IMG/VR virus record: IMGVR_UViG_2778261065_000024
Coordinates: 1-49,328 of that record
DNA from: a virus
Lineage: Duplodnaviria > Heunggongvirae > Uroviricota > Caudoviricetes
Length of the DNA stretch: 49,328 bases
Strand: one strand, 5' to 3'
Made by a program: the position numbers and the translations under genes. Each line of letters begins with the position of its first letter. Positions within the stretch are counted from its first letter, which is position 1. Below, piece after piece: positions 3,550 through 44,247 of the stretch. The notes beneath the pieces were generated by a model, which saw only the letters and a list, made by a program, of their open reading frames with translations, did not search any database and was not told the DNA's origin.

Positions 3550-3581
3550 GTTCAATTATGAGAACTTTCTAAGGGGGCAGC

Positions 3582-4671: not shown

Positions 4672-4905
4672 ATGCGTAATATTGAAACCCTCACGACTAA
4701 AACCGGACCGGATGATGCAGGGCTTAATATTTTACTGACAGAGGCTCGTCTGGAAGAACGCCGGGCAAGGGCTGAAGCAATGGCAGCTCGCCTTGATAGC
4801 CTGGCGTGTCATATCACATCCCGCCAGCTAAACCACGTCGAAGCAGCAGAACTACTGCGTGTAACTGCTGAAGCAATCCAGAACGAAGCGCAGGAGATCC
4901 ACTAA
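4672..4905 (+). CDS. hypothetical early protein (77 aa)
   Basis: ATG at 4672 preceded by CAGGAG 8 nt upstream; in the early operon. Confidence 0.5.
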   Translation: MRNIETLTTKTGPDDAGLNILLTEARLEERRARAEAMAARLDSLACHITSRQLNHVEAAELLRVTAEAIQNEAQEIH

Positions 4906-5132
4906 TGGCTGATGCAATGGATCTTGTACAGCAGCGCGTTGAAGAAGAACGCCAGCGCCATATCCGTGCTGCCCGTGCCAAAACGCCGGGCGTGTCCCGC
5001 GTGCTTTGCATTGAGTGTGAAGCGCCAATTCCGCCAGCACGCCGCCGCGCCATTCCAGGTGTGCAGCTTTGCATTACCTGTCAGGAAATCGCAGAACTGA
5101 AAGGCAAACATTACAACGGAGGTGCTGTATGA
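4905..5132 (+). CDS. TraR/DksA-family C4 zinc-finger protein
   Basis: 75 aa with CIECE...(17)...CITCQ, i.e. CxxC-x17-CxxC; CAGGAG RBS; stop overlaps the dam start (ATGA). Confidence 0.65.
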   Translation: MADAMDLVQQRVEEERQRHIRAARAKTPGVSRVLCIECEAPIPPARRRAIPGVQLCITCQEIAELKGKHYNGGAV

Positions 5133-5986: not shown

Positions 5987-8397
5987 GTCATGCCGATATG
6001 AACAACTGCTGCGGCTTTAACGAGGCTACCGCAGCATTCTCATGGAACAGCCCGAAAAAGGCCATTAACCCTTATCTGGACCCGGCGGAAGTTGCGCCGG
6101 TTTCTGCGCTTTCAAACCTGATCACTCTGTACGCTGCCGATAACGAGCAGGAACAACTGCGCCGTGAGGCACTGAGTGATCAGGTCTGGGAGCGTTATTT
6201 CTTTAATGAATCCCGTGATCCTGTCCAGCGCGAAATGGAGCAGGATAAGCTAATTAGCCGGGCAAAGCTGGCGCATGAGCAGCAGCGTTTTAATCCAGAC
6301 ATGGTCATTCTGGCGGATGTCAACGCCCAGCCTTCCCATATCAGCAAGCCGCTGATGCAACGTATTAAATACTTCAGCAACCTGGGCAGGCCAAAGGCTT
6401 ATTCCCGCTATTTGCGTGAGACGATTAAGCCATGCTTGGAACGACTGGAGCATGTACGCGACAGCCAGCTATCTGCATCTTTTCGTTTTATGGCAAGCCA
6501 TGAAGGGCTGGACGGTCTGCTGATCCTGCCTGAAATGAGTCAGGATCAGGTGAAACGCCTGTCCACCCTTGTCGCTGCGCATATGAGCATGTGTCTTGAT
6601 GCCGCTTGTGGTGATTTGTACGCCTCCGATGATGTTAAGCCGGAAGAAATCCGCAAGACATGGGAAAAGGTGGCAGCAGAAACCCTGCGACTGGATGTCA
6701 TACCGCCTGCGTTTGAGCAACTCCGCCGGAAAAGAAACCGCCGCAAACCTGTGCCCTATGAACTCATTCCGGGTTCGCTGGCGCGTATGCTGTGCGCCGA
6801 CTGGTGGTATCGGAAATTATGGAAGATGCGTTGCGAATGGCGGGAAGAGCAGTTGCGTGCTGTCTGTCTGGTCAGCAAAAAAGCATCTCCCTATGTCAGC
6901 TATGAAGCCGTGATGCATAAACGTGAGCAGCGCCGTAAGTCGCTGGAGTTTTTCCGTTCTCATGAACTGGTGAACGAAGACGGCGACACGCTGGACATGG
7001 AGGATGTGGTAAACGCCAGCAGCAGCAACCCTGCGCATCGCCGCAATGAGATGATGGCCTGTGTTAAAGGCCTGGAGCTTATCGCGGAAATACGCGGTGA
7101 CTGCGCCGTTTTCTACACCATCACCTGTCCGTCACGTTTCCATTCCACGCTAAATAACGGCAGGCCCAACCCGACCTGGACAAATGCGACGGTAAGACAA
7201 AGCAGTGATTATCTGGTTGGCATGTTTGCTGCATTTCGTAAGGCGATGCACAAAGCCGGATTGCGCTGGTATGGCGTGCGGGTGGCTGAGCCGCATCATG
7301 ACGGTACAGTTCACTGGCACCTGTTGTGTTTTATGCGCAAAAAAGATCGCCGCGCCATTACTGCTTTGTTGCGTAAGTTTGCCATTCGTGAAGACCGCGA
7401 GGAGCTGGGGAATAACACGGGACCACGCTTTAAGTCTGAGTTGATTAACCCGCGCAAAGGAACGCCGACAAGCTACATCGCGAAATATATCAGTAAGAAC
7501 ATTGACGGGCGTGGTCTGGCTGGCGAGATCAGCAAGGAAACGGGTAAATCCCTGCGTGATAACGCTGAATACGTGAATGCCTGGGCGTCTCTGCATCGTG
7601 TTCAGCAATTCCGCTTCTTTGGCATTCCGGGGCGTCAGGCTTACCGTGAACTGCGATTGCTGGCTGGTCAGGCGGCAAGGCAACAGGGTGACAAAAAAGC
7701 AGGTGCGCCGGTACTGGATAACCCGCGCCTTGATGCAATCCTGGCTGCTGCTGATGCTGGTTGTTTTGCCACCTACATCATGAAGCAGGGCGGCGTACTG
7801 GTTCCCCGTAAATATCACCTCATCAGAACCGCTTATGAAATCAACGAAGAGCCAACCGCCTATGGCGATCACGGTATTCGTATTTATGGCATCTGGTCAC
7901 CCATTGCAGAGGGCAAGATCTGCACTCATGCAGTGAAGTGGAAAATGGTTCGTAAGGCCGTTGACATTCAGGAGGCGGCAGCCGACCAGGGCGCTTGCGC
8001 CCCTTGGACTCGTGGCAATAACTGTCCCCTTGCTGAAAATTTGAACCAACAGGAGAAAGATAAATCAGCTGATGGGGGCCCCAGAACGGACTTTACCCGC
8101 ATGGATGACAAGGAGTTGCACGATTACCTGCACAGTATGAACAAAAAGGGGCGCCGGGAACTGGCTGCAAGGTTACGTCTGGTGAAACCGAAACGGCGTA
8201 GAGACTACAAACAGCGAATTACAGACCATCAACGACAGCAGCTCGTCTATGAACTGAAATCCAGAGGATTTGATGGCAGCGAGAAAGAGGTCGATTTACT
8301 CCTTCGCGGCGGCAGTATTCCGTCAGGAGCAGGCCTGCGTATCTTCTATCGGAACCAGCGTTTGCAGGAAGATGATAAGTGGCGGAACCTGTATTAA
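5983..8397 (+). CDS. A: replication initiation endonuclease gpA (rolling-circle)
   Basis: 804 aa; conserved block shared with the second copy at 41425-44247 ([36 protein letters not shown]); position after the early genes. Confidence 0.9.
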
Positions 8398-8467
8398 TTA
8401 CGCTGGTTAACAATTCGTGCTCTTAATAATACCAGGCATATCAGGCTGATAAGCGTAAAAAAAACGT

Positions 8468-8510
8468 TTTACATCAGTAAGATTATTATATACTGTAAAT
8501 ATAAACAGTG
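8468..8510 (+). promoter_or_regulatory. SOS-regulated promoter: TTTACA -35, TATACT -10, overlapping LexA box TACTGTAAATATAAACAGTG (8491-8510)
   Basis: CTGT-N8-ACAG core (CTGT 8493-8496, ACAG 8505-8508), close to the LexA consensus TACTGTATATATATACAGTA, 40 bp upstream of the 8552 ORF. Confidence 0.6.
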
Positions 8511-8551
8511 GTTATACATACAGCATTGCGTGTGGTGTCATAGGAGGAAAG

Positions 8552-8740
8552 ATGCAGGACTATTTTTTGGAGTCTTTGAAGCTCCAGCGCATTGATTTTT
8601 TTCTTAAGCTTGTAGCGGCTAGTGAGTGTAGTGATGAAGAGAAGGGGCTGGCTCTGCAGTGGGTTTCTGAATTGACTGATGAACTCATGGCAAAAATCAG
8701 AAGCCACGAATACAACCGCTCAATGGATGTCATCAGCTGA
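8552..8740 (+). CDS. small protein (62 aa), possibly a Tum-like antirepressor N-terminal module
   Basis: ATG preceded by TAGGAGGAAAG; downstream of the LexA box; followed 10 bp later by a DinI-like gene. Confidence 0.45.
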   Translation: MQDYFLESLKLQRIDFFLKLVAASECSDEEKGLALQWVSELTDELMAKIRSHEYNRSMDVIS

Positions 8741-8750
8741 GGTGACTTTT

Positions 8751-8984
8751 ATGCGCATTGAAATAATGATCGATAAAGAGCAGAAGATTAGCCAGTCTAC
8801 CCTGGACGCCCTTGAATCCGAGCTTTACCGCAATCTGCGCCCCCTGTATCCCAAAACGGTAATCCGTATCCGTAAAGGTAGCTCTAACGGTGTGGAACTG
8901 ACCGGACTGCAACTGGACGAAGAAAGAAAACAAGTGATGAAAATTATGCAGAAGGTGTGGGAAGACGACAGCTGGCTGTATTGA
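8751..8984 (+). CDS. DinI-family protein
   Basis: 77 aa MRIEIMIDK....TVIRIRKGSSNGVELTGLQLDEERKQVMKIMQKVWEDDSW, resembling the DinI family fold; GAGGTG RBS. Confidence 0.75.
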   Translation: MRIEIMIDKEQKISQSTLDALESELYRNLRPLYPKTVIRIRKGSSNGVELTGLQLDEERKQVMKIMQKVWEDDSWLY

Positions 8985-9097
8985 TTTTGTCAATAGACGC
9001 TTGTTTTTACTAATCAAAAAGGGTTACATATGAGTGAGAGGCGATGTCAATCAGATATCGCCTTGTTTTTTGTCAAGAAAAGAATAATAGGCTAAAA

Positions 9098-9775
9098 ATG
9101 AAAATTAATAATGTAGCGTTACCAATATCTCTTGCTGTAATCCTAACTGGTTGCGTGCCACATGCTTCTAACCGAAATATCACTGCTATTGAAGTGGTGA
9201 AGCCTGCTATTGGGCAAAGTGCTACCGCCTACATGGGCGATCCCATTATCACATCTGCTACTGGATTTAAAACGGACGTACTAGAACTTGGTGCGGCTAA
9301 TGGTGCATTGTCTTCTATCGCTGCTGGTACATATTGCAGTGAGGGGAATGGAATTTACCGCAATTATCATAACCCTCAAGCTGTTGCGTTAAAAAATCTC
9401 TATGGGCAAATCGGTAACTATGTTGATTATGTTAGTTACGATGCTGCAAAAAATGAGATATCACCGCCAAATGGTACTTCTTATACTGCATCAGAAATTT
9501 CTATCAAACGTGTTCCTGATGGGCTGTGTCGAGTTAGTAACTCATTGGTTAAGACTATCGAATACAATGGAAATGCAGGCGGTGTAATGAAGTTCACCTA
9601 TCGTGAATTTGCAAACGATATGGCTCGTGCAGCATTTACAACAGATTTTTCTGTAGATTCTAAGGGAAGTGACGTTATCGCTTACAAAGGTGCCAAGTTC
9701 AAAGTGAACAAGGCTGATAACTCGTCTATTTCTTATACAATTATTTCTGGCTTTGACAAGGCTGTCACGTTCTAG
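9098..9775 (+). CDS. putative lipoprotein (cargo gene; function unknown)
   Basis: N-terminus MKINNVALPISLAVILTGC with lipobox LTGC; alternative start at 9044 with GAGAGG RBS; moderately AT-rich; lies between A and the packaging genes. Confidence 0.7.
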   Translation: MKINNVALPISLAVILTGCVPHASNRNITAIEVVKPAIGQSATAYMGDPIITSATGFKTDVLELGAANGALSSIAAGTYCSEGNGIYRNYHNPQAVALKNLYGQIGNYVDYVSYDAAKNEISPPNGTSYTASEISIKRVPDGLCRVSNSLVKTIEYNGNAGGVMKFTYREFANDMARAAFTTDFSVDSKGSDVIAYKGAKFKVNKADNSSISYTIISGFDKAVTF

Positions 9776-9879
9776 GTTTCACGCTTACTGAGTATGTTAC
9801 GATTTTGCACATTCTGCATAAGCGCGCATGTCTATGCTGCATGAGATCGCATGATCGTTTGAGGATCTTTTGTGTTAAG

Positions 9880-9904
9880 GCCCGCCAGTTCTGGCGGGCT
9901 TTTG
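9880..9904 (+). terminator. rho-independent terminator candidate downstream of the lipoprotein gene
   Basis: GCCCGCCAG-tt-CTGGCGGGC hairpin followed by TTTTG. Confidence 0.5.
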
Positions 9905-9948
9905 CGTAGATCATGCAGGTGCATGAAAACCACTACATAAAGCGGGCA

Positions 9949-9967
9949 GGCGTGGCGGGGATACGAG
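9949..9967 (+). other. candidate cos (cohesive end) site of the 186-like prophage
   Basis: GGCGTGGCGGGGATACGAG resembles the P2 cos cohesive end GGCGAGGCGGGGAAAGCAC as I recall it; correct strand relative to Q; the recalled sequence is not verified. Confidence 0.3.
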
Positions 9968-10077
9968 CGCGCGCTCATGGTTGAATTAATGAAATTATGG
10001 TGTTAAATAGGCTAGCTTTTTAAGTCGTGAATATTCAATTTTTCAACTCATTTTTTTCATAGGGAGGAGTAATTGAC

Positions 10078-10776
10078 ATGGTTATGTTAGTGGATGACTG
10101 TCCACGATGTGGATCACAAAAAATAGCGTTTGATGTTAATGGGCTGAATTGCACTAGGGTTTACAATGCATTGGGCGGGGGTAAAACATACGAGTACGAG
10201 GTCTATTGTGTTTGCCGAGAGTGTCATAAAACGACAATGTTTCTTTGCAGACCTTTAACGAAAAATAAAACTTTAGATGGCTATAATTGGGAAAGTGGAA
10301 TATTCGGCTTAAAGGAAGTTGCAGAGGTTGTTAGGCCTATATCACCGGCAGACTTAGCAGTAGAGGAGCCACCAGAGTTCTTACCTGAGCATATCAATAG
10401 TGCATATGAGGAAGGGGCGAAATGTTTGGCTATAGGTTGTTATAATGCAGCAGCAACCATGTTTAGGCTTTGCCTTGATTATGCCACAAAAGGACTTCTT
10501 CCTGATGGGGAGCAAGGGCCTGCGCAAAAAATAAGGAGAAGCCTAGGGTTAAGAATGGAGTGGTTATTTGATAATCATCTACTGCCTGAAGCTTTAAGGG
10601 AACTAGCTGAATGCGTTAAAGATGACGGAAATGATGGAGCGCATGAAGGTATTTTGGATAAAGCTGCTGCTGAGGATCTTGAAGATTTTACCTATCTTTT
10701 TTTAGAACGGCTTTACACTGAACCTCAACGCCTTATCGAAGCCAAGACAAGGCGTGAACAAAGAAGAAACAAATAA
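10078..10776 (+). CDS. zinc-ribbon protein with DUF4145-like C-terminal domain (cargo gene, candidate defence)
   Basis: 232 aa; strong RBS AGGGAGGAG; N-terminal CPRCG...CVCRECH (C4 zinc ribbon); C-terminal VKDDGNDGAHEG resembles the GN..AH signature I associate with DUF4145; sits between candidate cos and the Q stop. Confidence 0.75.
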   Translation: MVMLVDDCPRCGSQKIAFDVNGLNCTRVYNALGGGKTYEYEVYCVCRECHKTTMFLCRPLTKNKTLDGYNWESGIFGLKEVAEVVRPISPADLAVEEPPEFLPEHINSAYEEGAKCLAIGCYNAAATMFRLCLDYATKGLLPDGEQGPAQKIRRSLGLRMEWLFDNHLLPEALRELAECVKDDGNDGAHEGILDKAAAEDLEDFTYLFLERLYTEPQRLIEAKTRREQRRNK

Positions 10777-10784
10777 GTTCGGAA

Positions 10785-11822
10785 TTATTCTTCTGAAAGA
10801 ATATAGGGCGTAAATTTAATCACTTCTTCGCCCAGCCAGTCGTTCAGCTCTTGTAGCCTTTTTTGCAAGGGAGTTAATTCATTACGTACAAATACGCGAC
10901 TGGCCTTCTCCACATCCCCAAACCCTCCAACATTATTAGGCATAATCCCCATCATTTGCGGCGGCACGCGGTGCGCAGCCATCATGTCGTCGCGGCTGAC
11001 ATTTTTGATATTCAAAAACTCATCCTTCGCCGCGACTTCTGACAATGGGATGATCTGAAGCCCGTCTTTTTTGCCGTTAGGCGAGTACATAAACAGGTTG
11101 CGGAAGTTGCCTGGACCTTTGGCGCTTTTCATCGCATTGCGGAGGTTGTTCACATCCTCCTGGTTTTGCGCGGCATCGGTCATGTACATGATAAAGCCCG
11201 CATGACTGCCGTTAATGTAATACTTGCGACGGAACAGCGTGGCGGACTCGTTGAGCAGGGCTGACGGAATGGCAGAAAGATAACCGGGCAGGCCGTAGAT
11301 CTCCTGATTAATATCCGGTTCCATCAGATGAAAAATGCTGCCTTTCGTGAACTGATACGGCTGGGTTGTCATACCGTATTGCACAAACCAGTAGGTATCC
11401 AGGTCTAACCCGCGTCGGGTGTATTTTGCCAGTGCAGGCTCAAGGGCGATAACTTCACCGAAGCGGTTCGTGCGTTTCTCCAGGTAGGCGTTACCAAAAA
11501 CCAGATAGTCCTGCACAAAACGCGAAAAAGCCTGCTGGCTGAGCAGCGGGTGAGGGATGTAGGTGCTGGTCAGAATGTTGCACTTTACTGCAATCGGGGA
11601 ACTATGATGCACGGCAGCGCGGAAGGTGCGCGCCAGTCCGTCAAAGCTGACGGGCGGCTCATACCAGCGGTCCATCTGTACGCATTCCACATAATCCAGC
11701 AGTTCTCGGCGGTCCAGAACAGGAACGGGATCGCCGAAGCTGAATGCTTCGGCTGTAGTTTGACTTTTAAGCTGGATCTGTTTCGTCGCCGCAGCGCGGT
11801 TCTTCTTACTCTTTCCCATCAA
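10785..11822 (-). CDS. Q: portal protein gpQ
   Basis: 345 aa; P2 Q-like length and position; paralogous to the 36740-37786 copy (HRVPPQMMG, GDVEKA). Confidence 0.9.
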   Translation of the reverse strand: MMGKSKKNRAAATKQIQLKSQTTAEAFSFGDPVPVLDRRELLDYVECVQMDRWYEPPVSFDGLARTFRAAVHHSSPIAVKCNILTSTYIPHPLLSQQAFSRFVQDYLVFGNAYLEKRTNRFGEVIALEPALAKYTRRGLDLDTYWFVQYGMTTQPYQFTKGSIFHLMEPDINQEIYGLPGYLSAIPSALLNESATLFRRKYYINGSHAGFIMYMTDAAQNQEDVNNLRNAMKSAKGPGNFRNLFMYSPNGKKDGLQIIPLSEVAAKDEFLNIKNVSRDDMMAAHRVPPQMMGIMPNNVGGFGDVEKASRVFVRNELTPLQKRLQELNDWLGEEVIKFTPYILSEE

Positions 11823-13585
11823 AAAATCTCCACAATATTGCTGGTATTGGCGGATTCGCCCTGCAGCGGTTCGTTAAACAGTGCGTGCATCGTTGCCCAG
11901 GCCAGATCGGCGTGGCTGGCTTCTTCGCTGCGGCTGGCTTCATAGGTCGGGCGGTTGCCACTGGCGGTGGTGGCGCGACGGATTGCCATAAAGGACTGCG
12001 CTATGTCGGTGTGTCCGGCGTCAAACTCCAGACGGCGGTGGCTGATAATGTCGTAGGCCTTGAGTACCAGGGCGTTTTTAACGTTGGGGTTGTAGACAAA
12101 CTCCCGGACGGCAGGAAAAAACGCTTTCACGTTCTCGTAAACCCCGTGACCAACGCCGGTTGAGTCGATACCGATATAGGTCACGTTGTACTGTTCGGTC
12201 AGTTTTTTGATGGCGTCAGCCTGGGCGCGGAAGTCCATTCCGCGCCACTGGTGACGCTCAAGAATGCGGAACTTACCGCCCGGCACGGCTGGCGGCGCCA
12301 CCACCACGCATCCGGCGCTGTCGCCGTTCTGCGTACCTTTCGCCGGGTCATATCCGATCCACACTTCGCGCCAGCCAAACGGGCGCAGGGCCAGTGCATG
12401 AAAGTCGGTCCAGACTTCCCAACTGTCCACCATGCACGCCTGCAGCTCGCTGAGCGGGAACACGGACGCGAGATCGTCCACGAACTCGCACATCAGCAGG
12501 TTCTGGTATTCGTCCGGGCTGTACTCCATGCGCAACTGGTCAAGGTCGAACAGGTTACAGCCGCCGCGCACCGCATCTTCCACGGTGACTATCTGGCGGT
12601 ACTGCCCGTCTGCGCACAGCAGGCCGGGGGCCAGATTGCTGTGGGACAGGTCGATGTCCACCTTATCGGCTTTGTTGCGCCCTCGGTTGAACAGCGCACC
12701 GGACCAGAACGGATAAGCACTGTGTGTCAGGCTGGATGGCGTGGAAAAATAGGTTTGTCGCCATTTTTTGTGAATAGCCATACCGGAAGCCACTTTGCGC
12801 AGCTCCTGGAATTTCGGTATCCAGAAATATTCATCCAGATACAGGTTGCCGTGGTAACTCTGGGCCGTGCGGGCATTGGTGCCGAGGAAGTAAAGCGTGG
12901 CCCCGTTAGGAAGCACCATCGGATCGCCTTTCAGCTCCACCTCGACTTCTTTGGCGAAGTCGATGATGTACTGCTTAAAGACGTGGGCCTGTGCCTTACT
13001 GGCGGAAAGGAAAATCTGGTTACGTCCGGTCAGCAGGGCGTCAATCAGGGCTTCACGGGCAAAGTAAAAGGTCGCGCCGATCTGGCGAGACTTCAGCAGG
13101 TTGCGGATGCGATTGGTTTTTCCGGCTTCCCACCAGTGGCGCTGGTAGTTGAACATGGAGGAATGGAAGATTTCTTCCAGCTTCTCAATCTGTTCATCGG
13201 TGAAAACATTCTTTTCCGGCTGACGGCGCGGCCCTTTGTTGCGGTTGGCGACGTTAGGGTTTAAGTCGGCTTCGTTGCCGCCATTGTTAAACTTGCCGAT
13301 CCGCGCGTGGCGCTCCGACTGGCGCGCCAGCAGGTCAATTTCTTTGAAATCTTTCCCTTCTTTGTGCTCCTTCATAATGAGCTGGCAGTAGCGGGCGGCG
13401 GTGGTGAGCTGCATCTGATCCAGCGGCCCATAGTCACCCCACTTGTCGCGTTTTTTCCAGCTGTGAACGGTTGCAACTTTCTCGCCCAGCATTTCAGCAA
13501 TGCGGGCTACGCGGTATCCCTGAAAGTACAGCAGCATGGCCTGCCGACGGGGATCGAGATCTGCGGGTGTCAGTGTGGTGTTCAT
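11819..13585 (-). CDS. P: terminase large (ATPase) subunit gpP
   Basis: 588 aa; paralogous to 34989-36740; conserved LKSRQIGATFYFA block; overlaps the Q start. Confidence 0.9.
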   Translation of the reverse strand: MNTTLTPADLDPRRQAMLLYFQGYRVARIAEMLGEKVATVHSWKKRDKWGDYGPLDQMQLTTAARYCQLIMKEHKEGKDFKEIDLLARQSERHARIGKFNNGGNEADLNPNVANRNKGPRRQPEKNVFTDEQIEKLEEIFHSSMFNYQRHWWEAGKTNRIRNLLKSRQIGATFYFAREALIDALLTGRNQIFLSASKAQAHVFKQYIIDFAKEVEVELKGDPMVLPNGATLYFLGTNARTAQSYHGNLYLDEYFWIPKFQELRKVASGMAIHKKWRQTYFSTPSSLTHSAYPFWSGALFNRGRNKADKVDIDLSHSNLAPGLLCADGQYRQIVTVEDAVRGGCNLFDLDQLRMEYSPDEYQNLLMCEFVDDLASVFPLSELQACMVDSWEVWTDFHALALRPFGWREVWIGYDPAKGTQNGDSAGCVVVAPPAVPGGKFRILERHQWRGMDFRAQADAIKKLTEQYNVTYIGIDSTGVGHGVYENVKAFFPAVREFVYNPNVKNALVLKAYDIISHRRLEFDAGHTDIAQSFMAIRRATTASGNRPTYEASRSEEASHADLAWATMHALFNEPLQGESANTSNIVEIF

Positions 13586-34988: not shown

Positions 34989-36740
34989 ATGATTCAGGAC
35001 GCTTTTGTGCGCCAGCGTGCGCGGCAACTTTACTGGCAGGGTTATCCGCCCGCAGAAATATCACGTCTGATGGGAATAAACCCGAACACGATTTATGCGT
35101 GGAAAAAACGCGACCAGTGGGATGAAACGCCACCCGTGCAGCGTGTCACGCAGTCCATCGATGCGCGCCTCATCCAGCTTACTGAAAAACAGAATAAAAC
35201 AGGCGGTGACTTTAAGGAAATAGACCTGCTGACCCGGCAGCTTAAAAAGCTGCATGATGGCCAGCCGGATGTGATGGCCGCAGGAAAGAAAGGCCGGGCG
35301 AAAAAACTCAAAAATCATTTCACGCCGGAACAGATTGCCGCACTGCGGGAAAAAATCATCAGCAGGCTGGAGTGGCATCAGCGGGGCTGGTTTGACTCCC
35401 TGACCCTTTGCAGGGAAGCCGGGATACGTAACAGGATGATCCTGAAATCCCGACAGATTGGGGCGACCTGGTATTTTGCACAGGAAGCTCTGCTGATGGC
35501 GTTGCGTGACGATGTGGCGCAACCTTACCAGCGTAACCAGATTTTTTTGTCTGCGTCGCGTCGTCAGGCGTTCCAGTTTAAAAGCATTATTCAGAAGGCC
35601 GCGGCTGAAGTTGATGTGGAGCTGAAAGGGGGCGATAAAATCATCCTCTCCAACGGCGCAGAGCTGCATTTTCTCGGCACTTCTGCTGCGTCGGCACAGT
35701 CCTATACGGGCAATTTTTATTTTGATGAATTTTTCTGGGTCAGTCGCTTTGCTGAACTGCGCAAGGTGGCTGGCGCTATGGCAACCCTCAGCGGACTGCG
35801 GCGCACCTACTTCTCCACGCCATCCACCGAAACGCACGAGGCATACGCCTACTGGAACGGCGACCGCTGGAACGAGAAAAAGGCCTCGCATAAACGCCAG
35901 CGTTTTTCTGTGGACTGGAAAACGCTGCATAACGGGCTTATCTGCCCTGACCGGACGTGGCGGCAAATTGTTACGCTGGAAGATGTGGTTAATCACGGCT
36001 GGAAACACACCGATATTGACGAAATCCGTGATGAAAACACCGAAGACGAGTTCCTCAATCTCTATATGTGTGAGTTTGTTCGCGAAGGGGAATCGGCATT
36101 TAACCTGAATATCCTGATTGGCTGCGGTGTTGACGGATACGACGACTGGAAAGACTGGAAACCTTTTGCTCCCCGCCCGATGGGGAATCGTCCGGTATGG
36201 ATTGGGTATGACGCAAACGGCAGCAGTGGCAACGGCGACAGCGGCGCTGTGTCCGTGGTGGTTCCTCCGGCTGTTCCTGGTGGCCGTTTTCGAACGGTGG
36301 AGACGCGACGCGTTCAGGGGCTGGAGTTTGAAGAACAGGCCAGAGTCATTGAAGAGTTCACGTGTCGCTACAACGTGGAACACATCGGCATTGATGTGAC
36401 GGGCGGGAACGGGGAGGCTGTTTATCAGATAGTGAAGCGGTTTTTCCCTGCTGCTATTCCGTACACCTTCACGCTGTCATCCAAACGGTCGCTGGTACTG
36501 AAAATGCTGCAAATAATGCGTGCCGGACGGTGGGAATACGATCGCGCCGAACGCGAGCTGGTCGCGGCCTTTAACGCCGTGCGTAAGGTGAAAACACCGG
36601 GCGGCTTTATCACTTACGAAACGGACCGCGCGAGGGGGATCAGCCACGGCGACCTTGCGTGGGCAACCATGCTTGCTGTCATTAACGAACCGATTGGCGG
36701 CGAAGGAGAAAACGAGCGTTTCACGGTTATGGAGTTCTGA
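34989..36740 (+). CDS. P: terminase large (ATPase) subunit gpP (second segment)
   Basis: 583 aa; paralogue of 11819-13585. Confidence 0.9.
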   Translation: MIQDAFVRQRARQLYWQGYPPAEISRLMGINPNTIYAWKKRDQWDETPPVQRVTQSIDARLIQLTEKQNKTGGDFKEIDLLTRQLKKLHDGQPDVMAAGKKGRAKKLKNHFTPEQIAALREKIISRLEWHQRGWFDSLTLCREAGIRNRMILKSRQIGATWYFAQEALLMALRDDVAQPYQRNQIFLSASRRQAFQFKSIIQKAAAEVDVELKGGDKIILSNGAELHFLGTSAASAQSYTGNFYFDEFFWVSRFAELRKVAGAMATLSGLRRTYFSTPSTETHEAYAYWNGDRWNEKKASHKRQRFSVDWKTLHNGLICPDRTWRQIVTLEDVVNHGWKHTDIDEIRDENTEDEFLNLYMCEFVREGESAFNLNILIGCGVDGYDDWKDWKPFAPRPMGNRPVWIGYDANGSSGNGDSGAVSVVVPPAVPGGRFRTVETRRVQGLEFEEQARVIEEFTCRYNVEHIGIDVTGGNGEAVYQIVKRFFPAAIPYTFTLSSKRSLVLKMLQIMRAGRWEYDRAERELVAAFNAVRKVKTPGGFITYETDRARGISHGDLAWATMLAVINEPIGGEGENERFTVMEF

Positions 36741-37786
36741 TGAGCAGAAAAAATAAAAAAGCGCGCATGAGTTCACGCATTGATCTCGCTGATGCGCTCA
36801 GGAAAGAATCATCGCTCAGTGCATTCACATTTGATGGTCCTTATCGCCTGACCGGGCATGACCTGCTGGACAATATGTACTGTGCTGATAACGGGCGGTG
36901 GTATGAAACCCCGGTGGACTGGTACGGTCTGGCAAGAGCAGCCCGGCAAACGTCCTGGCATCAGTCTGCGCTTTACTTTAAGCGCAATGTATTACTCGGT
37001 TGCTACATCCCGCACCCGCTGCTTTCCCGGCAGGATTTCTCGGCGCTGGCGCTGGACTGGTTTGTGTTCGGTAACGCATTCCTTGAGCTTCGAAGCAATA
37101 TGCTCGGCGAACCGCTTAAATTACGGCACGCACTGGCGAAATACATGCGACGCGGAAGCGATCTTGAATCATGGTGGTATGTGCAGGATGGCAAGGACGC
37201 GTTCCAGTTTCGCCCTGGCAAAGTGTGCCACCTGATGAATCCTGACATTAGCCAGGAAATCTACGGCATGCCGGAATATCTCGGCGCATTACTCTCGGCC
37301 AGCCTGTCTCATTCGGCGGACATGTTCAGAAAACTGTATTACGACAACGGATCCCACGCCGGGTGCATCATCTACATCGGTGCAGCGCAGGTAAACCGCG
37401 AAAGCATGGACTCCCTGAAAGAAACGTTACAGGGTGCGCGCGGTGGTGGCGCGTTTAAAAACGTGCTCATCCATGCGCCCAACGGGGGCAAAGAGGGGGT
37501 GCAAATTTTGCCGTTCCAGCAGATCACCGCAAAGGATGAGTTCATGAATGTTAAGGCGGCATCCCGTGATGATGTGCTGGCTGCGCACCGCGTTCCGCCG
37601 CAACTGATGGGGGCGATGCCGGGCGAAAAAAGTGCGTTTGGTGATGTGGAGAAGGCCGCGCGGGTTTACGCAATTAACGAGCTGATGCCCGTCATGGAGG
37701 CCATGAAGCACATCAATGACTGGCTTGGCGAAGAGGTGATCCGCTTTAACCCTTACGCACTGTTAGACACCCAGCCCACATCCTGA
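36740..37786 (+). CDS. Q: portal protein gpQ (second segment)
   Basis: 348 aa; paralogue of 10785-11822. Confidence 0.9.
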   Translation: MSRKNKKARMSSRIDLADALRKESSLSAFTFDGPYRLTGHDLLDNMYCADNGRWYETPVDWYGLARAARQTSWHQSALYFKRNVLLGCYIPHPLLSRQDFSALALDWFVFGNAFLELRSNMLGEPLKLRHALAKYMRRGSDLESWWYVQDGKDAFQFRPGKVCHLMNPDISQEIYGMPEYLGALLSASLSHSADMFRKLYYDNGSHAGCIIYIGAAQVNRESMDSLKETLQGARGGGAFKNVLIHAPNGGKEGVQILPFQQITAKDEFMNVKAASRDDVLAAHRVPPQLMGAMPGEKSAFGDVEKAARVYAINELMPVMEAMKHINDWLGEEVIRFNPYALLDTQPTS

Positions 37787-37803
37787 CGCGCTTCGCTTGT
37801 CTG

Positions 37804-37846
37804 CTGCTTCGCCGGGGCATAAAAAATTTATGCCCCGGCGAAGCAG
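37804..37846. terminator. perfect 20-bp inverted repeat with 3-nt spacer downstream of Q (terminator-like or structural site)
   Basis: CTGCTTCGCCGGGGCATAAA-aaa-TTTATGCCCCGGCGAAGCAG. Confidence 0.5.
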
Positions 37847-38097
37847 CTCCTGTATCAGTCAGATAATTTCACGACGCTTTCCTGCTGATTGCCATCATCG
37901 ACAGTCAGACTCTTACGCAATTCCACCGCGTTGACTGCATGTTTTCGCCGTCTCAGTGCGATTTTGACGGCCTTACCTTTCACCCCATCAAATCAAAAGC
38001 CCTCACGTCTTTTTCACGCTCAGCGTGAGAAATACAGCCATTCTGTTGTATCTCTGCGACATCGTTCAGGGAATGCTATTTACCCCCTGAAACGCGG

Positions 38098-38240: not shown

Positions 38241-38263
38241 GAGAAAGAAGGCCAGGAAGAAAG

Positions 38264-38290
38264 AAAAGCCGCCTTTAAAAGGCAGCTTTT
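38264..38290 (-). terminator. rho-independent terminator candidate for the cargo operon
   Basis: Imperfect hairpin AGCCGCCTTT/AAAGGCAGCT followed on the minus strand by a T-rich run; just downstream of the toxin gene stop. Confidence 0.45.
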
Positions 38291-38328
38291 CAGATTAGTA
38301 AGGGATTGATAGATAGTCGTCGCAAAAC

Positions 38329-38709
38329 TCAAAAAGAAGACTGGAACTCTTCTGCTCTGCGCTCAATTTCTGCCATGTAGGATGTACGGGCTAACTCATG
38401 CGCATTGGGTGTCATAATGCTGATTAGCTGATACTTATCTGGATATAAGAAATGGCGGGAGTAAACAAGATAACTGTTTGATTTACGCGAGGCGGCAGGT
38501 AGCTTTGCAGGCCACGGCTGTTCATCAGGTAAACGAATGTGAATCTTAAAAACAAAAGAATCACGAAGACGCCCGCTATCTTCCCACTGCCCTTCGTTGC
38601 CAAAGACTGAGGGTAAAGATCCGCCGTTTTTCCATGACTGCAAAGCATGTGCATATTTACGAGCAACTGCGGGGAGTTCTATGTCATTGTGGACAGAGAC
38701 TTTAATCAT
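38329..38709 (-). CDS. YafO-family toxin (ribosome-dependent mRNA interferase family)
   Basis: 126 aa; blocks GSLPSVFGNEGQWEDS, FKIHI, SYLVYSRHF..YQLISIMTPNAHELAR..MAEIERRAEEF align with E. coli YafO as I recall it. Confidence 0.75.
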   Translation of the reverse strand: MIKVSVHNDIELPAVARKYAHALQSWKNGGSLPSVFGNEGQWEDSGRLRDSFVFKIHIRLPDEQPWPAKLPAASRKSNSYLVYSRHFLYPDKYQLISIMTPNAHELARTSYMAEIERRAEEFQSSF

Positions 38710-38718
38710 GGCCCTGCC

Positions 38719-39312
38719 TTAATGGAACGTTGGATCTTCAAGGCCCAGCTTTTTATGTTCACTGCGGATAAGTGCGTGAACCTGATCGGCGGTAACACCC
38801 AGATCAGCATCTGAAGTTTTCTTCGGCACATGCGTGCTTTCAATGAAGGATAAAATATCTTCAATCGTATAGCGAAGCGTCGCAGCGGAACGAGCAAAAG
38901 CGACAATCTCTTTTCTCAGTTCCGCGTTACTTTCAGGTACGCTTTTCAGCGCAACCTTTGCAGCCTCGACAAAACTTGCACATACCGCAATATGACGGAA
39001 AAGGCTTTCAAACCCTTCCTGAGTCTCTTTTTTCTGATTTTTCAGAATAATAGGGAGCTGCTTTTCTTCCCATTCGATGCGAAGGTTTGCCCTGTGTGTC
39101 TTCATCCTATCAGCCAGGTTAAGCATATAACTGGTGGCCTCATCAATAGGAAGGTATGCCACAGAATCCTTTACGTCCTGGAGGGATAGCGTAGACGTAC
39201 TGTGCCGGGAGATTGATAAGTCATGATGCACAATGCTACTGGCAGGAACAGGGGCGAGAGCCACCGCCAGCGCTGCGGCCATAGATGTTATTTTATTTTT
39301 TTTACTGCTCAT
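38719..39312 (-). CDS. hypothetical protein with signal-peptide-like N-terminus, co-oriented 10 bp upstream of the YafO-family toxin
   Basis: ATG at 39312 after AGGAAAGG; N-terminus MSSKKNKITSMAAALAVALAPVPASS; ORF opens at 39363; unlike YafN. Confidence 0.6.
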   Translation of the reverse strand: MSSKKNKITSMAAALAVALAPVPASSIVHHDLSISRHSTSTLSLQDVKDSVAYLPIDEATSYMLNLADRMKTHRANLRIEWEEKQLPIILKNQKKETQEGFESLFRHIAVCASFVEAAKVALKSVPESNAELRKEIVAFARSAATLRYTIEDILSFIESTHVPKKTSDADLGVTADQVHALIRSEHKKLGLEDPTFH

Positions 39313-39484
39313 AATTGCCTTTCCTGCCAATAATCGTGAACCACTGCCGGAATGATAGCGCAAAAAATCACCCGCTGAAACGAATTATCCTTGCGGCAAA
39401 ACTAGCCCGCGTCAACCTCATACCACGCCAGCGTCGATTGATAGTTTTGTGCCGCCTCGCGTAATGCCTGATAGTCAATCTTGC

Positions 39485-40012
39485 TCACTGGTTGCCTCCT
39501 TTGCGGAGTAGCGCCAGCTCTTCCTGCGCCTGCATCATGCGATTGACCTGAACGCGTGTGCGTCGAACGGCAAAATTAAATTGAAACATGAGCCGGAACA
39601 TTTCTGAGGCTTCCGTGTGAACATCATGGAGAGGTGACAGGCGGTACAGTTCTGCCTCCGTAGCTTGTTGAATCAATGACAGATCAAATTGAAGTGCGGG
39701 TCTGGTACATTTTGCACATCTGGCAGCAAGCTCCGGCATCAGTTTCTTAACGAAGGTGTTTTGCACCGCTTTGTTGAGTTGTGTCTGCATCCAAATCGCA
39801 AATTTCAGCGAACGCATAAATTTGATAGCCTCGGGCAGCGGCAGATAGATCATGCTAGTAGATTTGGGTGGTTGGTGAATCATCTTCACGGATACGCGAT
39901 TTCGCAGCGTTCGGAAAATCGTGTTCCCAACAACAGCTTCTACGGATACAGGACAGGGAGCCAGACCAGCCCGCAGTGCTTCTTTCATTAGCATGTATTC
40001 GTATTTTTTCAT
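39485..40012 (-). CDS. hypothetical protein (175 aa) downstream of parR
   Basis: ORF co-oriented with parMR; no recognisable motifs. Confidence 0.55.
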   Translation of the reverse strand: MKKYEYMLMKEALRAGLAPCPVSVEAVVGNTIFRTLRNRVSVKMIHQPPKSTSMIYLPLPEAIKFMRSLKFAIWMQTQLNKAVQNTFVKKLMPELAARCAKCTRPALQFDLSLIQQATEAELYRLSPLHDVHTEASEMFRLMFQFNFAVRRTRVQVNRMMQAQEELALLRKGGNQ

Positions 40013-40072: not shown

Positions 40073-40384
40073 TCATTCAGGAAATAATGCCCGGATATTC
40101 CCTGCCATCTGGCTGGTTATCTGTGCGGTTGGTGCTGTCTGTGACGCGAGGCGTTCTGTCCTGGTTTGTGTCACTGATAACGCCTCATCGTCAGCCCATG
40201 CGGCCAGTCGGTAAGCCTCTGCCGGATTCATTTTCAGAAGTGCCAGCCCGGCCAGAAAAGCCATGCGTTGGACGCTTTTGCGGGCTTCTGGTGTAAGGCT
40301 GTCCAGCCAGGCGCATGCTTCGCCTTCGTTCTTGACGGCGGCGGGCTTCAGATAGAAACTTATCCGTCTGGTTGGTGTCGTCAT
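40073..40384 (-). CDS. parR: ParR/StbB-like centromere-binding partition protein
   Basis: 103 aa; ISFYLKPAAV...LDSLTPEARKSVQRMAFLAGLAL resembles R1 ParR; immediately downstream of parM. Confidence 0.7.
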   Translation of the reverse strand: MTTPTRRISFYLKPAAVKNEGEACAWLDSLTPEARKSVQRMAFLAGLALLKMNPAEAYRLAAWADDEALSVTQTRTERLASQTAPTAQITSQMAGNIRALFPE

Positions 40385-40388: not shown

Positions 40389-41348
40389 TTACTCCTTGTT
40401 CATTGCGTACAGCCCATTAACCAGAGCAAACTGTGGCACCCCGTCCGCGATGAAAGTCGCATTAACTCCGCAGGCTTCGCGGATAGCGGGTGCCACAATC
40501 TCCGCTCCTCCACCGACAACCATCACCCGCCCGTAACCGGAAAAACCCGCCAGCACGCGGATCACACGTTGTTTCAGTGTTTCTTCCTTTTCACGAATAA
40601 CCGCCACCAGGCTGGCGTAATGCGCGTCATTGTGGATGTGCTGGCGCAGCCAGGCTTCATCATGGCGATGTTCGATAATGGTATTGGCGATGTGGTGACT
40701 GGTACGCATACCGTTAGTGGCCATCACCGACAGTACGGCATCGGCCATCAGGGAAACGCCTACGTGTGGATCGCAAAACACCTGGCTGATACCTGCCAGT
40801 TGTCCCTGAACCTTTGCCACATCCAGCGTGGTTCCGCCTAAATCCACAATCAGCAGGGATTCAAACGGACTCATGTCAGCCAGTGCTTTAAAACCAGCCG
40901 GAATGGATTCAGGCATAACCCGTACGTTACGGATAGTGAATGCTTTTCCGTTCTGGTATTCCACCGGGCGCATGACGTTTGCTTTTTTGCGGTTGATGTT
41001 GGCCATGTCCGGCTGTGCGTTTGTGTCGAAATACTCGCTCAGTGGCAGGGTGACAACCACATCCACCTCCTGTGGTGTGATGCCTGATTTGACCAGCGCG
41101 TGATGAATGGCAATGACATTCACATCGCTGTACTGGTATTGCGTGTCGGTCGTCTGGACAAAGCGATCGCTGACCGGATCAAAACCATAGCGCACGCCAT
41201 CAAGCATGTAGTTCGCGGGCTGCGTGCCACCGAACGGCGCAGACCATTCCGACTTGAAGCTGTTCGGGCTGATAGCGTTGCGGCGTTCGCCGTTCTCAGT
41301 CCATGCCAGCTTGATGTTGGTGGAGCCGTCGTCGATACAAATTTTCAT
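40389..41348 (-). CDS. parM: ParM/StbA actin-like partition ATPase
   Basis: 319 aa; MKICIDDGSTNIKLAW, SPNSFK, YSDVNVIAIHHAL, VMPESIPAGF, LIVDLGGTTLDV, VMVVGGGAEI match ParM/StbA conserved blocks. Confidence 0.9.
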   Translation of the reverse strand: MKICIDDGSTNIKLAWTENGERRNAISPNSFKSEWSAPFGGTQPANYMLDGVRYGFDPVSDRFVQTTDTQYQYSDVNVIAIHHALVKSGITPQEVDVVVTLPLSEYFDTNAQPDMANINRKKANVMRPVEYQNGKAFTIRNVRVMPESIPAGFKALADMSPFESLLIVDLGGTTLDVAKVQGQLAGISQVFCDPHVGVSLMADAVLSVMATNGMRTSHHIANTIIEHRHDEAWLRQHIHNDAHYASLVAVIREKEETLKQRVIRVLAGFSGYGRVMVVGGGAEIVAPAIREACGVNATFIADGVPQFALVNGLYAMNKE

Positions 41349-41379: not shown

Positions 41380-41492
41380 TTTACGGGATTCTGAAATCCC
41401 GTTTTTGCCTGTTTTGTGCGCGCTTCATATATCGCTGCGCGTTTTTTGGTCATTTACGGGATTCGTGAGTCCCGTTTCTGTCTGTTTTTTGT
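41380..41492. repeat. two about 40-bp direct repeats, each with a palindromic core (ACGGGATTC..AATCCCGT), upstream of parM; candidate parC-like site
   Basis: tttacgggattctgaaatcccgtttttgcctgttttgtg (41380-41418) and tttacgggattcgtgagtcccgtttctgtctgttttttgt (41453-41492); the second lies within the 3' end of the A ORF. Confidence 0.5.
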
Positions 41493-44247
41493 TTCCGCTG
41501 GTCAGGCCACCCCGCAGCAGGTCTGCTTTGCGGCTGGCGCGTTCAGTGGTTTCACTGATTCTCTGTGCGTGCTCTGCGTCGCGGATGGCGCGCAGCATGT
41601 CAGAAAGCACGGTAACGGGTGTTTTCATGGTGTTCTGGTCCTGCTGAAGTGTGGATGCCAGGCGTGCGGCGGCTTCAGGGTCTGATGCCCCCAGCTGTGC
41701 CAGATAGCTGGCGACCGGGTTATGGCGGATCTCCGTGCTGCTTACGCCATGATTACGGCTCAGGCGCTGCCAGAGCTGCGTGATTCGGCTGTCCGGGCGG
41801 GTATCCGGTTTGCGTACAATTTCAAATCCCTGCGGTGCAATGATGCTGCCGTCAACGTACAGACTGCCGCCCCGTAACAGGTGCTGCATCTGTTGTTCAC
41901 CGATATGCAGGCCGAGAGATTCAGCAGACTCCCGCCATTCTTTAGCGAGTAACTCGTGGTTATCAGGCAAAGGTCGCGGCTGTTTGCGGCTCTGTGTCCA
42001 GTTCTGCATTTCATCGCTGCTGTTTTTTGCCTGTTTGTCACGAAGCGAACGCATCAGCGCCCGGCGTTCGTGTCGTTTCAGTGAGCGCATCCATTCATTC
42101 ACTTCAACGCCGTCAGGGATCTGCGGCCACGGTGCTGGCCGTTCTTCCGGCTGTTCTGTCCCGTTGTTGTCCGTTTCCTGTGCACGGGGACAGTTATTGC
42201 CACGAGTCCAAGGGGCGGCAGGGCCGCCCTGAAGGTCAAAACCATTTTCGTGGGTGCTGTCTTCCGCTTCCGGTTTACGTCTTACCAGCTTCCAGTTATC
42301 CGGGTGCGTGCACACACGGGAGGATTCCCCGATGAGTGGCGACCAGATCCCGTAAATCTGTACACTCTGTTCGCCGTAATCGTTCAGCTCATCTGCGAGG
42401 TCGTAGGCTGTGCGAATCAGGTAGTCCTTGCGCGGAACAAGTACGCCACCCTGTTTTTCAATGTAGGTGGCAAAACACCCGGCATCAGCGGCAGCAAGAA
42501 CCGCATCCATTGCGTCATCCTTCAGCCGTTGCGGGCCCTCCGGGTTGCGTGCCATCTGGCTGGCAAGGCGGCGGAGTTCACGCCACACCTGACGGGAGGG
42601 AATGCCAAAGAACTGGAACTGGCGGACCCGGTGAAGGCGCGCCCAGCCGATGGCGCGCTCCACGCTCTCGGCCATTGATTTTCCTGTTTCGTGGTCAACG
42701 CGTGGTTTGCCCGTTTTCGGGTCGATGCCATCCACGGCGCGGCTGTCCAGGTTCTTTCCGATGTAGGTGGCGATGTAGCTGGTTGGCGTGCCTTTTGAGC
42801 CGTCTACATACTCCGCCTTAAAGCGCGGAGTAATATCATCGCCCAGCTCGTGACGATCTTCCTGAATGGCAATATCGCGGGTGTGGGACACAATGGTGTC
42901 GATTTCTTCCGGATGGGCAAAGACCATCATATGCCAGTGCACGGTTCCGTCATGGTGAGGCTCCACCGTGCGGATGCCATACCAGCGCAGGCCGTCGCGG
43001 TTCAGTTTTTTGCGGACCGCCGCAAAAAACGTGTTAACCAGGTAATCGCTGGAGTCGCGCATGGTGGCCCCGTTCCATTTGGGGTTCGGATGACCGTTCT
43101 CCGTTGTTGCGTGGTATTTTGACGGGCAGGTGACAGTCAGAAACACCGCTCTGTCGCCACGGGCTTCGGCCAGAAGTTCCAGTCCCTTCATGGTGGCCAT
43201 CATTTCTGCCTTACGGTGAACCGGGTTACTTACTCCCGCGTAATACACTGTCTCGAGATCAATCGTGAACCCGTCTTCATTTTCCAGCATGAAACTTTTC
43301 AGGAAATCGCGTGTTTTCTCGCGCTGTGCGCGAAACTCGCTTAACGCGTCCTGGCTCAGATAGGGTGATGTTTTTCTGGAAACCAGACAGGCGGCGCGGA
43401 GTTGTTCTTCTCTCCACTCGCAACGTAACAGCCACAGTTTGCGTTTCCACCATTCCGCACAGGTCAGGCGAAGGATTGCGCCCGGCAGCAGCTCCGTGTC
43501 CGGTTCGTTCCTCCGGTCTTTGTCTGTTGTCAGTGCGTCATAATGTGGAGGCATGGCGTGCAGGTGTAACGCCATGCGGGCCAGCATCTGATACGCCTTC
43601 AGCGTTACATCCATGGTCAGTTCGCCATCAGTCGCGCCAAAGCCATCGCAGAGTTTTTCGAAGGTGCTGCTGAACATCGCCGCCGTCATGGTGGCCAGCG
43701 TCTGTATCTGGTGCTTGTTGAGCTGCGGCAGGTAAAGCAAATCATCCAGGCGTTCGCGTCCGGCAAGGGAGCGATAACCCGGTGTCAGCCAGCGGTGGTC
43801 GGTGCGGTCCAGACGTTCGAATATTTTGCGCAGGGTTCCGCGCGCGTAGCGTTCAGCCTGCCAGCTCTTTTTGCCTTTCCGGCGATCGACTTCCTGTTTT
43901 TTGCGCAGGAAGGAGAGGTGGCGAATAAGCGGATCGCGCAGATAGGACGGCAGCAGGCGCAGCGAGGCCATGGCTTCATCCACCGCGCCGCGTGCCTGTT
44001 TTCTGGCGTCTCCTGCCAGTGTGATGGTTTTGTCCTGTTTTTCCTGTGCATCCAGGCTTTTATTAATCAGGTTGCCCAGCGGCGTGGCGGAGAACGCCGC
44101 ATCAGCCATTTCCTGGCGGCGCTCGTTCTCTGCCCGGTAGGCATCCAGCCAGGAGGAAAGCGCAGATTCAGGAACGGGGATCCCCGTTCCTTCACGTCCC
44201 ACTGCGTGGCGCGGTTGTTGCCAGTCCCTGATGTACTCTGCCGTCAT
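41425..44247 (-). CDS. A: replication initiation endonuclease gpA (second segment)
   Basis: 940 aa; paralogue of 5983-8397 with the same conserved blocks. Confidence 0.9.
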   Translation of the reverse strand: MTAEYIRDWQQPRHAVGREGTGIPVPESALSSWLDAYRAENERRQEMADAAFSATPLGNLINKSLDAQEKQDKTITLAGDARKQARGAVDEAMASLRLLPSYLRDPLIRHLSFLRKKQEVDRRKGKKSWQAERYARGTLRKIFERLDRTDHRWLTPGYRSLAGRERLDDLLYLPQLNKHQIQTLATMTAAMFSSTFEKLCDGFGATDGELTMDVTLKAYQMLARMALHLHAMPPHYDALTTDKDRRNEPDTELLPGAILRLTCAEWWKRKLWLLRCEWREEQLRAACLVSRKTSPYLSQDALSEFRAQREKTRDFLKSFMLENEDGFTIDLETVYYAGVSNPVHRKAEMMATMKGLELLAEARGDRAVFLTVTCPSKYHATTENGHPNPKWNGATMRDSSDYLVNTFFAAVRKKLNRDGLRWYGIRTVEPHHDGTVHWHMMVFAHPEEIDTIVSHTRDIAIQEDRHELGDDITPRFKAEYVDGSKGTPTSYIATYIGKNLDSRAVDGIDPKTGKPRVDHETGKSMAESVERAIGWARLHRVRQFQFFGIPSRQVWRELRRLASQMARNPEGPQRLKDDAMDAVLAAADAGCFATYIEKQGGVLVPRKDYLIRTAYDLADELNDYGEQSVQIYGIWSPLIGESSRVCTHPDNWKLVRRKPEAEDSTHENGFDLQGGPAAPWTRGNNCPRAQETDNNGTEQPEERPAPWPQIPDGVEVNEWMRSLKRHERRALMRSLRDKQAKNSSDEMQNWTQSRKQPRPLPDNHELLAKEWRESAESLGLHIGEQQMQHLLRGGSLYVDGSIIAPQGFEIVRKPDTRPDSRITQLWQRLSRNHGVSSTEIRHNPVASYLAQLGASDPEAAARLASTLQQDQNTMKTPVTVLSDMLRAIRDAEHAQRISETTERASRKADLLRGGLTSGNKKQTETGLTNPVNDQKTRSDI

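Follow-up and report, generated by a model that had tools for sequence, protein, structure and literature searches.

The DNA analysed here, hereafter the window, is the whole 49,328-nt stretch of the Caudoviricetes record IMGVR_UViG_2778261065_000024. Within a P2-like prophage segment it carries, on the minus strand, a gene pair in which a YafO-family toxin is encoded directly downstream of a partner protein with a signal-peptide-like N-terminus. An earlier inspection of the letters alone (the original prediction) had singled out this pair as a toxin–antitoxin module of unusual architecture. The two genes lie in the same frame, with the partner upstream, and form a compact cassette with the following features.

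38242..39456, minus strand: whole swapped-in cassette of 1215 bp, comprising putative promoter, partner, toxin and terminator, delimited by blastn against the pS2122_1 prophage
38263..38291, minus strand: intrinsic terminator-like hairpin with a 13-bp stem and a T-rich tail, 38 nt past the toxin stop, from a terminator scan
38329..38709, minus strand: YafO-family toxin gene, 126 aa, predicted mRNA endonuclease of the RelE/HigB fold
38710..38718, minus strand: intergenic spacer of 9 nt, by direct reading of the sequence
38719..39312, minus strand: partner gene, 197 aa, ATG start, member of a small new family
39241..39312, minus strand: partner codons 1–24, MSSKKNKITSMAAALAVALAPVPA, with a basic n-region, an Ala-rich uncharged h-region and a V-P-A c-region with near-invariant LAPVPA
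39352..39384, minus strand: putative cassette promoter, block TTCGTTTCAG-N-TTTTTGCGCTATCAT, with a -10-like TATCAT at 39357–39352 and a weak -35

The gene pair itself was correctly located by the original prediction, but the 10-bp gap given there is in fact 9 nt, and the upstream end at 39363 probably does not hold. That position is the TTG of the longest mechanical open reading frame (ORF), which was rejected as a start. Homologues are nearly all 190–208 aa long and begin at the equivalent Met, so the real partner start is likely the ATG at 39312, which is preceded by a good ribosome-binding site (AGGAAAGG, 6-nt spacing). At the other end of the gene, a Shine–Dalgarno-like AAGGCAGGG within the spacer region overlaps the partner stop codon, which makes it plausible that translation of the toxin gene is coupled to that of the partner. 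Across homologous loci the gap between the two genes varies from -4 to +26 nt.

The toxin assignment is borne out. The 126-residue protein matches Pfam YafO_toxin (PF13957) with an E value of 2.3e-27 and 95.5 bits (gathering cut-off 25) over profile positions 2–100 of 101; an alignment with E. coli K-12 YafO shows 34% identity across 106 aa (E 1e-13). Its invariant residues include K55, H57, R75, H86 and H104. The Prokaryotic Genome Annotation Pipeline (PGAP) names the identical protein WP_000598767.1 "type II toxin-antitoxin system YafO family toxin". Because its score stays under the NCBIfam equivalog cut-off for K-12 YafO (NF007377; 59.4 vs 153 bits), we classify it by sequence as a separate YafO subfamily, not a K-12 orthologue. 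The predicted fold in the structure model matches RelE/HigB toxins. Sequence identity to RelE, HigB, YafQ and YoeB is only 6–16%; a ribosome-dependent mRNA endonuclease is predicted at the level of fold.

No significant match to the partner was found in Pfam, NCBIfam, PADLOC, PHROGs or PDB sequences, and comparison of its model with fold libraries returned generic structural matches only, to the helical bundle. Aligned with K-12 YafN by hhalign, it reached a probability of 0.4%, and there was no Phd/YefM Pfam match either; the original prediction had likewise seen no resemblance to YafN/Phd-type antitoxins in a protein of about 197 aa. A check against profile libraries gave no recognisable antitoxin family, even after correction of the start, and none of the DNA-binding antitoxin domains sought (ribbon-helix-helix, helix-turn-helix, Phd/YefM, AbrB) was recognised by Pfam, NCBIfam or model comparison. 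A profile search of 1.84 billion representatives yielded just 33 members or fragments of the partner family and no bridge from it to any known family. By these comparisons the partner stands outside YafN/Phd and every described antitoxin family. Two subfamilies can be distinguished, one with MSSKKNKISSMAAALAVALAPVPASS and the other with MKQKSTSAAVAAIVASLSASLAPVPAKS.

The partner consists of the signal-like N-terminus, a variable linker, a three-helix bundle, a conserved C-terminal helix and a tail. An AlphaFold2 (AF2) model, with a predicted local distance difference test score (pLDDT) of 77.7, places the elements as follows; the last four lines give the islands conserved across the family in alignments.

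Residues 2–16: predicted N-terminal helix
Residues 19–23, 40–42 and 51–55: predicted short strands
Residues 29–48: low-confidence linker
Residues 56–84, 95–124 and 130–159: three predicted long helices
Residues about 160–174: predicted flexible stretch
Residues 175–189: conserved C-terminal helix as modelled, then the tail
Residues 19–24: [L/M]-A-P-V-P-A
L54-P55
F139..A144
C-terminal I..EH..LG motif

The N-terminus is built like a Sec signal peptide. In the window protein, the n-region MSSKKNK (net charge +3) is followed by ITSMAAALAVALAPV and then V-P-A before S, giving 21 uncharged residues that end in VPA before SS; the basic n-region, uncharged h-region and small residues at -3 and -1 are those of a substrate of the Sec type (signal peptidase I). 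The 55 distinct full-length members of the family have a median n-region charge of +3 and a median uncharged stretch of 21 residues, which ends across the family in V-P-A followed by a polar or charged residue. About 52 of the 55 combine a basic tip with 14–32 uncharged residues, with a small residue nearly always at -1 and mostly at -3. The sequence of the h-region is wholly different between subfamilies while its apolar, small-residue character is maintained, and distant members carry textbook, strongly hydrophobic leaders, for example MKAVKNKTLARLPAIIAAGMGVVPA before HG and MKTLQYHKKLPRLVTLISMGLATVPA before ES.

Selection on this segment acts on the protein. The LAPVPA codons show free synonymous variation, and over the first 27 partner codons one subfamily pair shows a nonsynonymous divergence (dN) of 0 with saturated synonymous divergence (dS) and the other two pairs a dN of 0.035, which places the constraint on LAPVPA at the peptide level. 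An internal downstream start that would dispense with the leader was rejected on the same grounds. Candidates for naturally leaderless relatives did not hold up as proof of a dispensable leader: P0102 and P0086 both come without a toxin gene and look like remnants, and the start of P0100 was mis-called. A Phobius prediction lists a signal peptide for protein 1 of system 123, the catalogued counterpart of this pair described below (Rousset et al., 2022; PMC9122126, Table S5B). The Sec-like N-terminus noticed in the original prediction thus survives the correction of the start codon. Judged from its sequence, the leader probably functions in some form of membrane targeting or export, with translocation and cleavage putative.

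The limits of the cassette can be read from a close relative that lacks it. A P2-like prophage on the Salmonella plasmid pS2122_1 (locus L001) is 97–98% identical to the window up to 38241 and again from 39457, and has a 594-bp ead/Ea22-like gene at the cassette position. Since the window keeps only the first 24 codons of that gene between matching flanks, the cassette represents a 1.2-kb replacement. The terminator-like hairpin lies inside the cassette-specific DNA. The putative promoter block recurs almost unchanged ahead of the Erwinia pyrifoliae homologue despite only 60% protein identity, and -10-like hexamers recur at equal distance in most homologous loci. An Rfam search of the cassette gave no credible match to a hidden RNA antitoxin or a known RNA element.

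The cassette is situated between the portal gene Q (36740–37786, plus strand) and the replication gene gpA (41425–44247, minus strand) of the P2-like prophage, which confirms the accessory slot beside parMR named in the original prediction. This slot is a defence hotspot of P2-like phages, holding old and tin in P2 as well as other validated systems (Rousset et al., 2022; PMC9122126). The same gpA–portal slot is occupied in Erwinia and metagenomic P2-like prophages. On the gpA side of the cassette lie the following features.

39417..39488, minus strand: remnant of the ead/Ea22-like gene, first 24 codons, a PGAP pseudogene in the 100%-identical NZ_CP169399.1; it marks the upstream replacement edge and is outside the module
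39485–40012, minus strand: orphan ORF of 175 aa, between ParR and the Ea22 remnant
40073–40384, minus strand: ParR-like Plasmid_stab_B protein, between cassette and gene A
40389–41348, minus strand: ParM, between cassette and gene A

The 175-aa ORF gave no Pfam, NCBIfam or PADLOC match; in pS2122_1 it is kept with the parMR flank and not with the YafO cassette. Neither this ORF nor the Ea22 remnant was retained as part of the module, as neither is conserved alongside the pair elsewhere. The window has a plasmid partition pair of the ParM/ParR type inside a chromosomal P2-like prophage, and the same arrangement occurs on the Salmonella IncHI2 plasmid pS2122_1; roughly one in four P2-like phages carries such a pair (Rousset et al., 2022; PMC9122126). 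Just past the portal gene, a hairpin at 37803–37847 has a 35-bp inverted match to a related prophage, is terminator-like and attracts spurious Rfam miRNA-family matches; lying near the expected cos region, it is probably the Q-side terminator.

The cassette is rare, and its two genes stay together. Positions 38250–39480 of the window match the E. coli chromosome NZ_CP169399.1 at 100% identity. Among 5426 complete E. coli genomes, 7 carry the cassette, and the phage and plasmid collections contained no high-identity copy. The partner used as query against 5.8 billion proteins returned 23 clusters, 20 of them exactly 197 aa long, and those with a named source are enterobacterial; the toxin query returned 54 clusters. 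At each of the three partner homologues that were looked up (Serratia marcescens, Erwinia pyrifoliae and metagenomes) a YafO_toxin gene comes next, one of which had been missed by the gene caller and was recovered by tblastn. Most of the partner-homologue loci looked up are the gpA–portal slot of a P2-like prophage. Searching in the other direction, a toxin scan with one genome per species gave 25 loci, 22 of which encode a full-length toxin; the remaining three have a 5'-truncated toxin or toxin fragments. An intact partner-family ORF of 192–214 aa lies directly upstream on the same strand at 21 of these 22 loci (hidden Markov model E values from 1e-109 to 1e-20), and the single exception, in Serratia symbiotica, has a frameshifted partner. 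Because it recurs at so many independent loci, the pairing is far beyond chance.

Both genes are under purifying selection, with dN/dS of about 0.02 for the toxin and 0.13–0.34 for the partner. Mean pairwise identity is 37.5% for partners vs 62% for toxins, and the two diverge in step (r = 0.90). The pair is intact and syntenic across several enterobacterial families, and loss of the toxin gene is accompanied by decay of the partner.

Some loci point to recent movement. At L010, L011 and L012, which are labelled Mixta mediterraneensis, Izhakiella australiensis and Serratia marcescens, the toxin is 98–99% identical and the upstream block is as in E. coli, implying either that P2-like phages have moved the cassette between genera very recently or that the contigs are mislabelled or contaminated. 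Toxin dS is 2–7 times partner dS between the window and L010–L012 locus pairs (0.58 vs 0.21 for the window and L012), and this excess of toxin synonymous divergence between the same loci hints at recombination breakpoints within the cassette. In P2-like hotspots, a leaderless remnant of the partner family without YafO adjoins hicA/hicB, and in Erwinia pyrifoliae the intact cassette adjoins a hicAB pair. Judging by these loci (L037, 3001–3600; L038, 241–840; L005, 3656–4287), the gpA–portal slot seems to accumulate and exchange toxin–antitoxin modules.

In type II toxin–antitoxin systems, both proteins are cytoplasmic and a protease-labile DNA-binding antitoxin restrains the toxin. The window pair has the organisation of such a system: the genes are adjacent and co-oriented, the partner is upstream and the spacing is tight. 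The partner departs from it in having no recognised DNA-binding antitoxin domain, and its conserved signal-like N-terminus casts doubt on a cytoplasmic location. The closest well-known relative is the type II pair YafN–YafO of the E. coli K-12 dinB operon, where the toxin is also a PF13957 member and the partner gene also lies directly upstream with a tiny gap. The K-12 pair is part of an SOS operon, unlike the phage-carried window pair, and YafN has 97 aa, no detectable similarity to the 197-residue partner and, unlike the latter, a place in the Phd/YefM group and no signal-like N-terminus. Likewise, the interferases RelE, HigB, YafQ and YoeB of the RelE/ParE superfamily are restrained by RelB, HigA, DinJ and YefM, which are cytoplasmic DNA-binding proteins, unlike the partner. 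In toxin–antitoxin–chaperone (TAC) systems, which have a SecB-like chaperone, what becomes of the antitoxin is linked to a component akin to those of protein export. The cassette has neither a third gene nor a SecB homologue, and its export-related feature sits on the partner itself; we claim no membership of TAC. The P2 genes old and tin occupy the same slot, from gpA to the cos/gpQ end, but are single-protein exclusion factors with no sequence relationship to the pair.

The nearest match is a catalogued one. Protein 2 of system 123, "YafO_toxin", is identical to the toxin of the window, and protein 1 matches the partner at about 97% identity (Rousset et al., 2022; PMC9122126, Table S5B). That catalogue of the P2 gpA–gpQ hotspot records 24 occurrences of system 123 with the flag "signal peptide: protein 1"; YafO does not appear in the main text, and we came across no sign in main text or supplements that the system had been cloned or assayed (Rousset et al., 2022; PMC9122126). 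The unusual design described in the original prediction stands, but the pair is less novel than suggested there, given this entry with its signal-peptide flag and the YafO label already assigned by PGAP. The pair amounts to a conserved YafO module carried by phages, whose non-canonical, signal-bearing partner belongs to a very small new family. Our literature search brought up no link of YafO to phage defence beyond prophage surveys, and no paper covering both YafO and NetFlax.

We propose that the cassette is a toxin–antitoxin-like module for exclusion or addiction, in which a Sec-targeted pre-protein acts as neutraliser, a picture that, taken as a whole, we hold to be about evenly balanced between right and wrong. 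The pair would be a self-contained, horizontally mobile two-gene operon of the gpA–gpQ accessory hotspot. By analogy with K-12 YafO, the cytoplasmic toxin would cut ribosome-bound mRNA and stop translation. We infer that the partner acts as its obligate, faster-evolving antitoxin, co-transcribed and probably translationally coupled. The antitoxins RelB, YefM and Phd act through C-terminal segments; the partner, too, would probably bind its toxin through the parts that are best conserved, the C-terminal helix and tail (residues about 175–197) and possibly also the LAPVPA segment. Since the partner bears a conserved Sec-type leader and would lie beyond the reach of the toxin once exported, the neutralising species is taken to be the cytoplasmic pre-protein, the pool of which would be drained or relocated by membrane targeting or export. 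If phage takeover or loss of the element halted synthesis of the partner or changed its handling, free toxin would arrest the cell. Most likely, the module would serve to exclude competing phages (abortive infection), to stabilise the P2-like element with its ParMR pair, or both; the addiction or abortive-infection role suggested in the original prediction fits the hotspot position and the conserved pairing.

Several points weigh against this proposal. An exported partner, or one anchored with its N-terminus in and its C-terminus out, would be separated by the membrane from a ribosome-targeting toxin, and the pre-protein step is assumed so that two observations can both stand. The literature search found no exported, periplasmic or membrane-bound antitoxin, and no PADLOC-DB v2 model matches toxin or partner. 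A strict sigma-70 scan of the cassette found no promoter, for which reason a promoter of its own is something we infer from the conserved block. The near-invariance of LAPVPA is atypical of an ordinary cleavage region, and AF2 puts LAPVP (residues 19–23) in a small beta-sheet with residues 40–42 and/or 51–55, with a pLDDT of 83 for residues 11–20, a modelled arrangement which hints that this segment is part of the folded protein rather than of a cleaved leader. The same strand pairing would fit a conventional cytoplasmic type II system with a new antitoxin family, in which the hydrophobic, Ala-rich N-terminus has a structural role, binds the toxin or acts as a degron, and the signal calls by Phobius and by eye are false positives. 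LAPVPA and L54-P55 are among the very few invariant positions, as for a contact surface with the more conserved toxin; neutralisation must take place in the cytoplasm; and gene order, spacing and evolutionary rates are classic for type II. Set against this, the leader pattern persists in about 52 of 55 members despite total turnover of the h-region, which is how signal peptides evolve and not packed helices, the distant members have classic hydrophobic leaders, Phobius predicts a signal peptide in system 123 (Rousset et al., 2022; PMC9122126, Table S5B), and no typical type II DNA-binding domain was detected in the partner. On balance, we consider a purely cytoplasmic pair rather unlikely, if worth keeping in mind.

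The opposite departure is that the partner is exported or membrane-tethered and never neutralises the toxin directly. It would then be an envelope sensor or superinfection-exclusion factor with a YafO effector controlled otherwise, by low expression or activation upon infection only, or a build-up of its precursor under a block of Sec or of the proton-motive force would activate the toxin. The signal-like anatomy and the Phobius call agree with such a protein, and so does a hotspot that also houses the single-protein exclusion genes old and tin, which are not toxin–antitoxin systems. Ala/Ser/Thr-rich, weakly hydrophobic h-regions such as the one found here recall the signal-anchor-release domains of phage lysis regulators. 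However, an N-in topology leaves some seven poorly conserved residues in the cytoplasm, with no obvious signal route to a toxin that targets ribosomes; strict pairing, tight spacing and co-divergence are most simply read as direct binding; and the partner decays where the toxin gene is lost. This makes a partner without direct contact to its toxin a poor prospect in our estimation. It is very improbable that the two genes are prophage cargo that is decaying or has no function, or an artefact of annotation, with no joint function. The partner has no known function, few E. coli genomes carry the cassette, and degraded copies exist, but the low dN/dS of both genes, the intact, syntenic pair in several enterobacterial families and the retention of a conserved promoter block and a terminator all speak against decay.

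A bolder version of the Sec-targeted neutraliser, which we put forward as speculative and doubtful, is an export-labile antitoxin: the Sec pathway, and not Lon/Clp proteolysis, would remove the partner, and LAPVPA would serve both as c-region and as a toxin contact masked in the complex. Were this true, release of the toxin would be coupled to the balance between synthesis and membrane targeting of the partner, which phage takeover or envelope damage would upset, providing a previously undescribed route to the unstable half of a toxin–antitoxin or abortive-infection switch. More generally, a partner that is in fact Sec-targeted and yet controls the toxin would couple an effector of translation arrest to the secretion machinery or the state of the envelope, a new principle of sensing and lability in abortive infection or addiction. 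Should the leader turn out not to be an export signal, the partner would still found a new antitoxin family for YafO toxins and would call for caution with signal-peptide predictions for Ala-rich N-termini. The system is small (1.2 kb), self-contained and easily tested.

The window as a whole contains two P2/186-like prophage segments (1–24106 and 24078–47000) in opposite orientation, which abut at tail-fibre and tail-fibre-assembly genes near 24.1 kb. The YafO cassette belongs to the second; the first carries an integrase, CI, CII, Fil, DinI, gpA (5983–8397) and a portal gene (10785–11822). The gpA–portal hotspot of the first prophage (8400–10785) gave no matches in an NCBIfam scan and holds other cargo, according to a related record a DinI family protein, a hypothetical protein (about 9098–9775) and a DUF4145-domain protein (10078–10776); a related genome has an IS21 insertion in this hotspot that is absent from the window. 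The best-matching genomes differ between the two halves (NZ_CP169309.1 for 1–12000, NZ_CP169399.1 for the cassette region), which suggests that the window is a recombinant or rearranged arrangement. At its left edge, beside the integrase of the first prophage, the ORF at 1–1521 (minus strand) bears the annotation "GapS1 family protein" in NZ_CP169309.1, a 100%-identical genome, and is a candidate for a defence gene at this end of the prophage.

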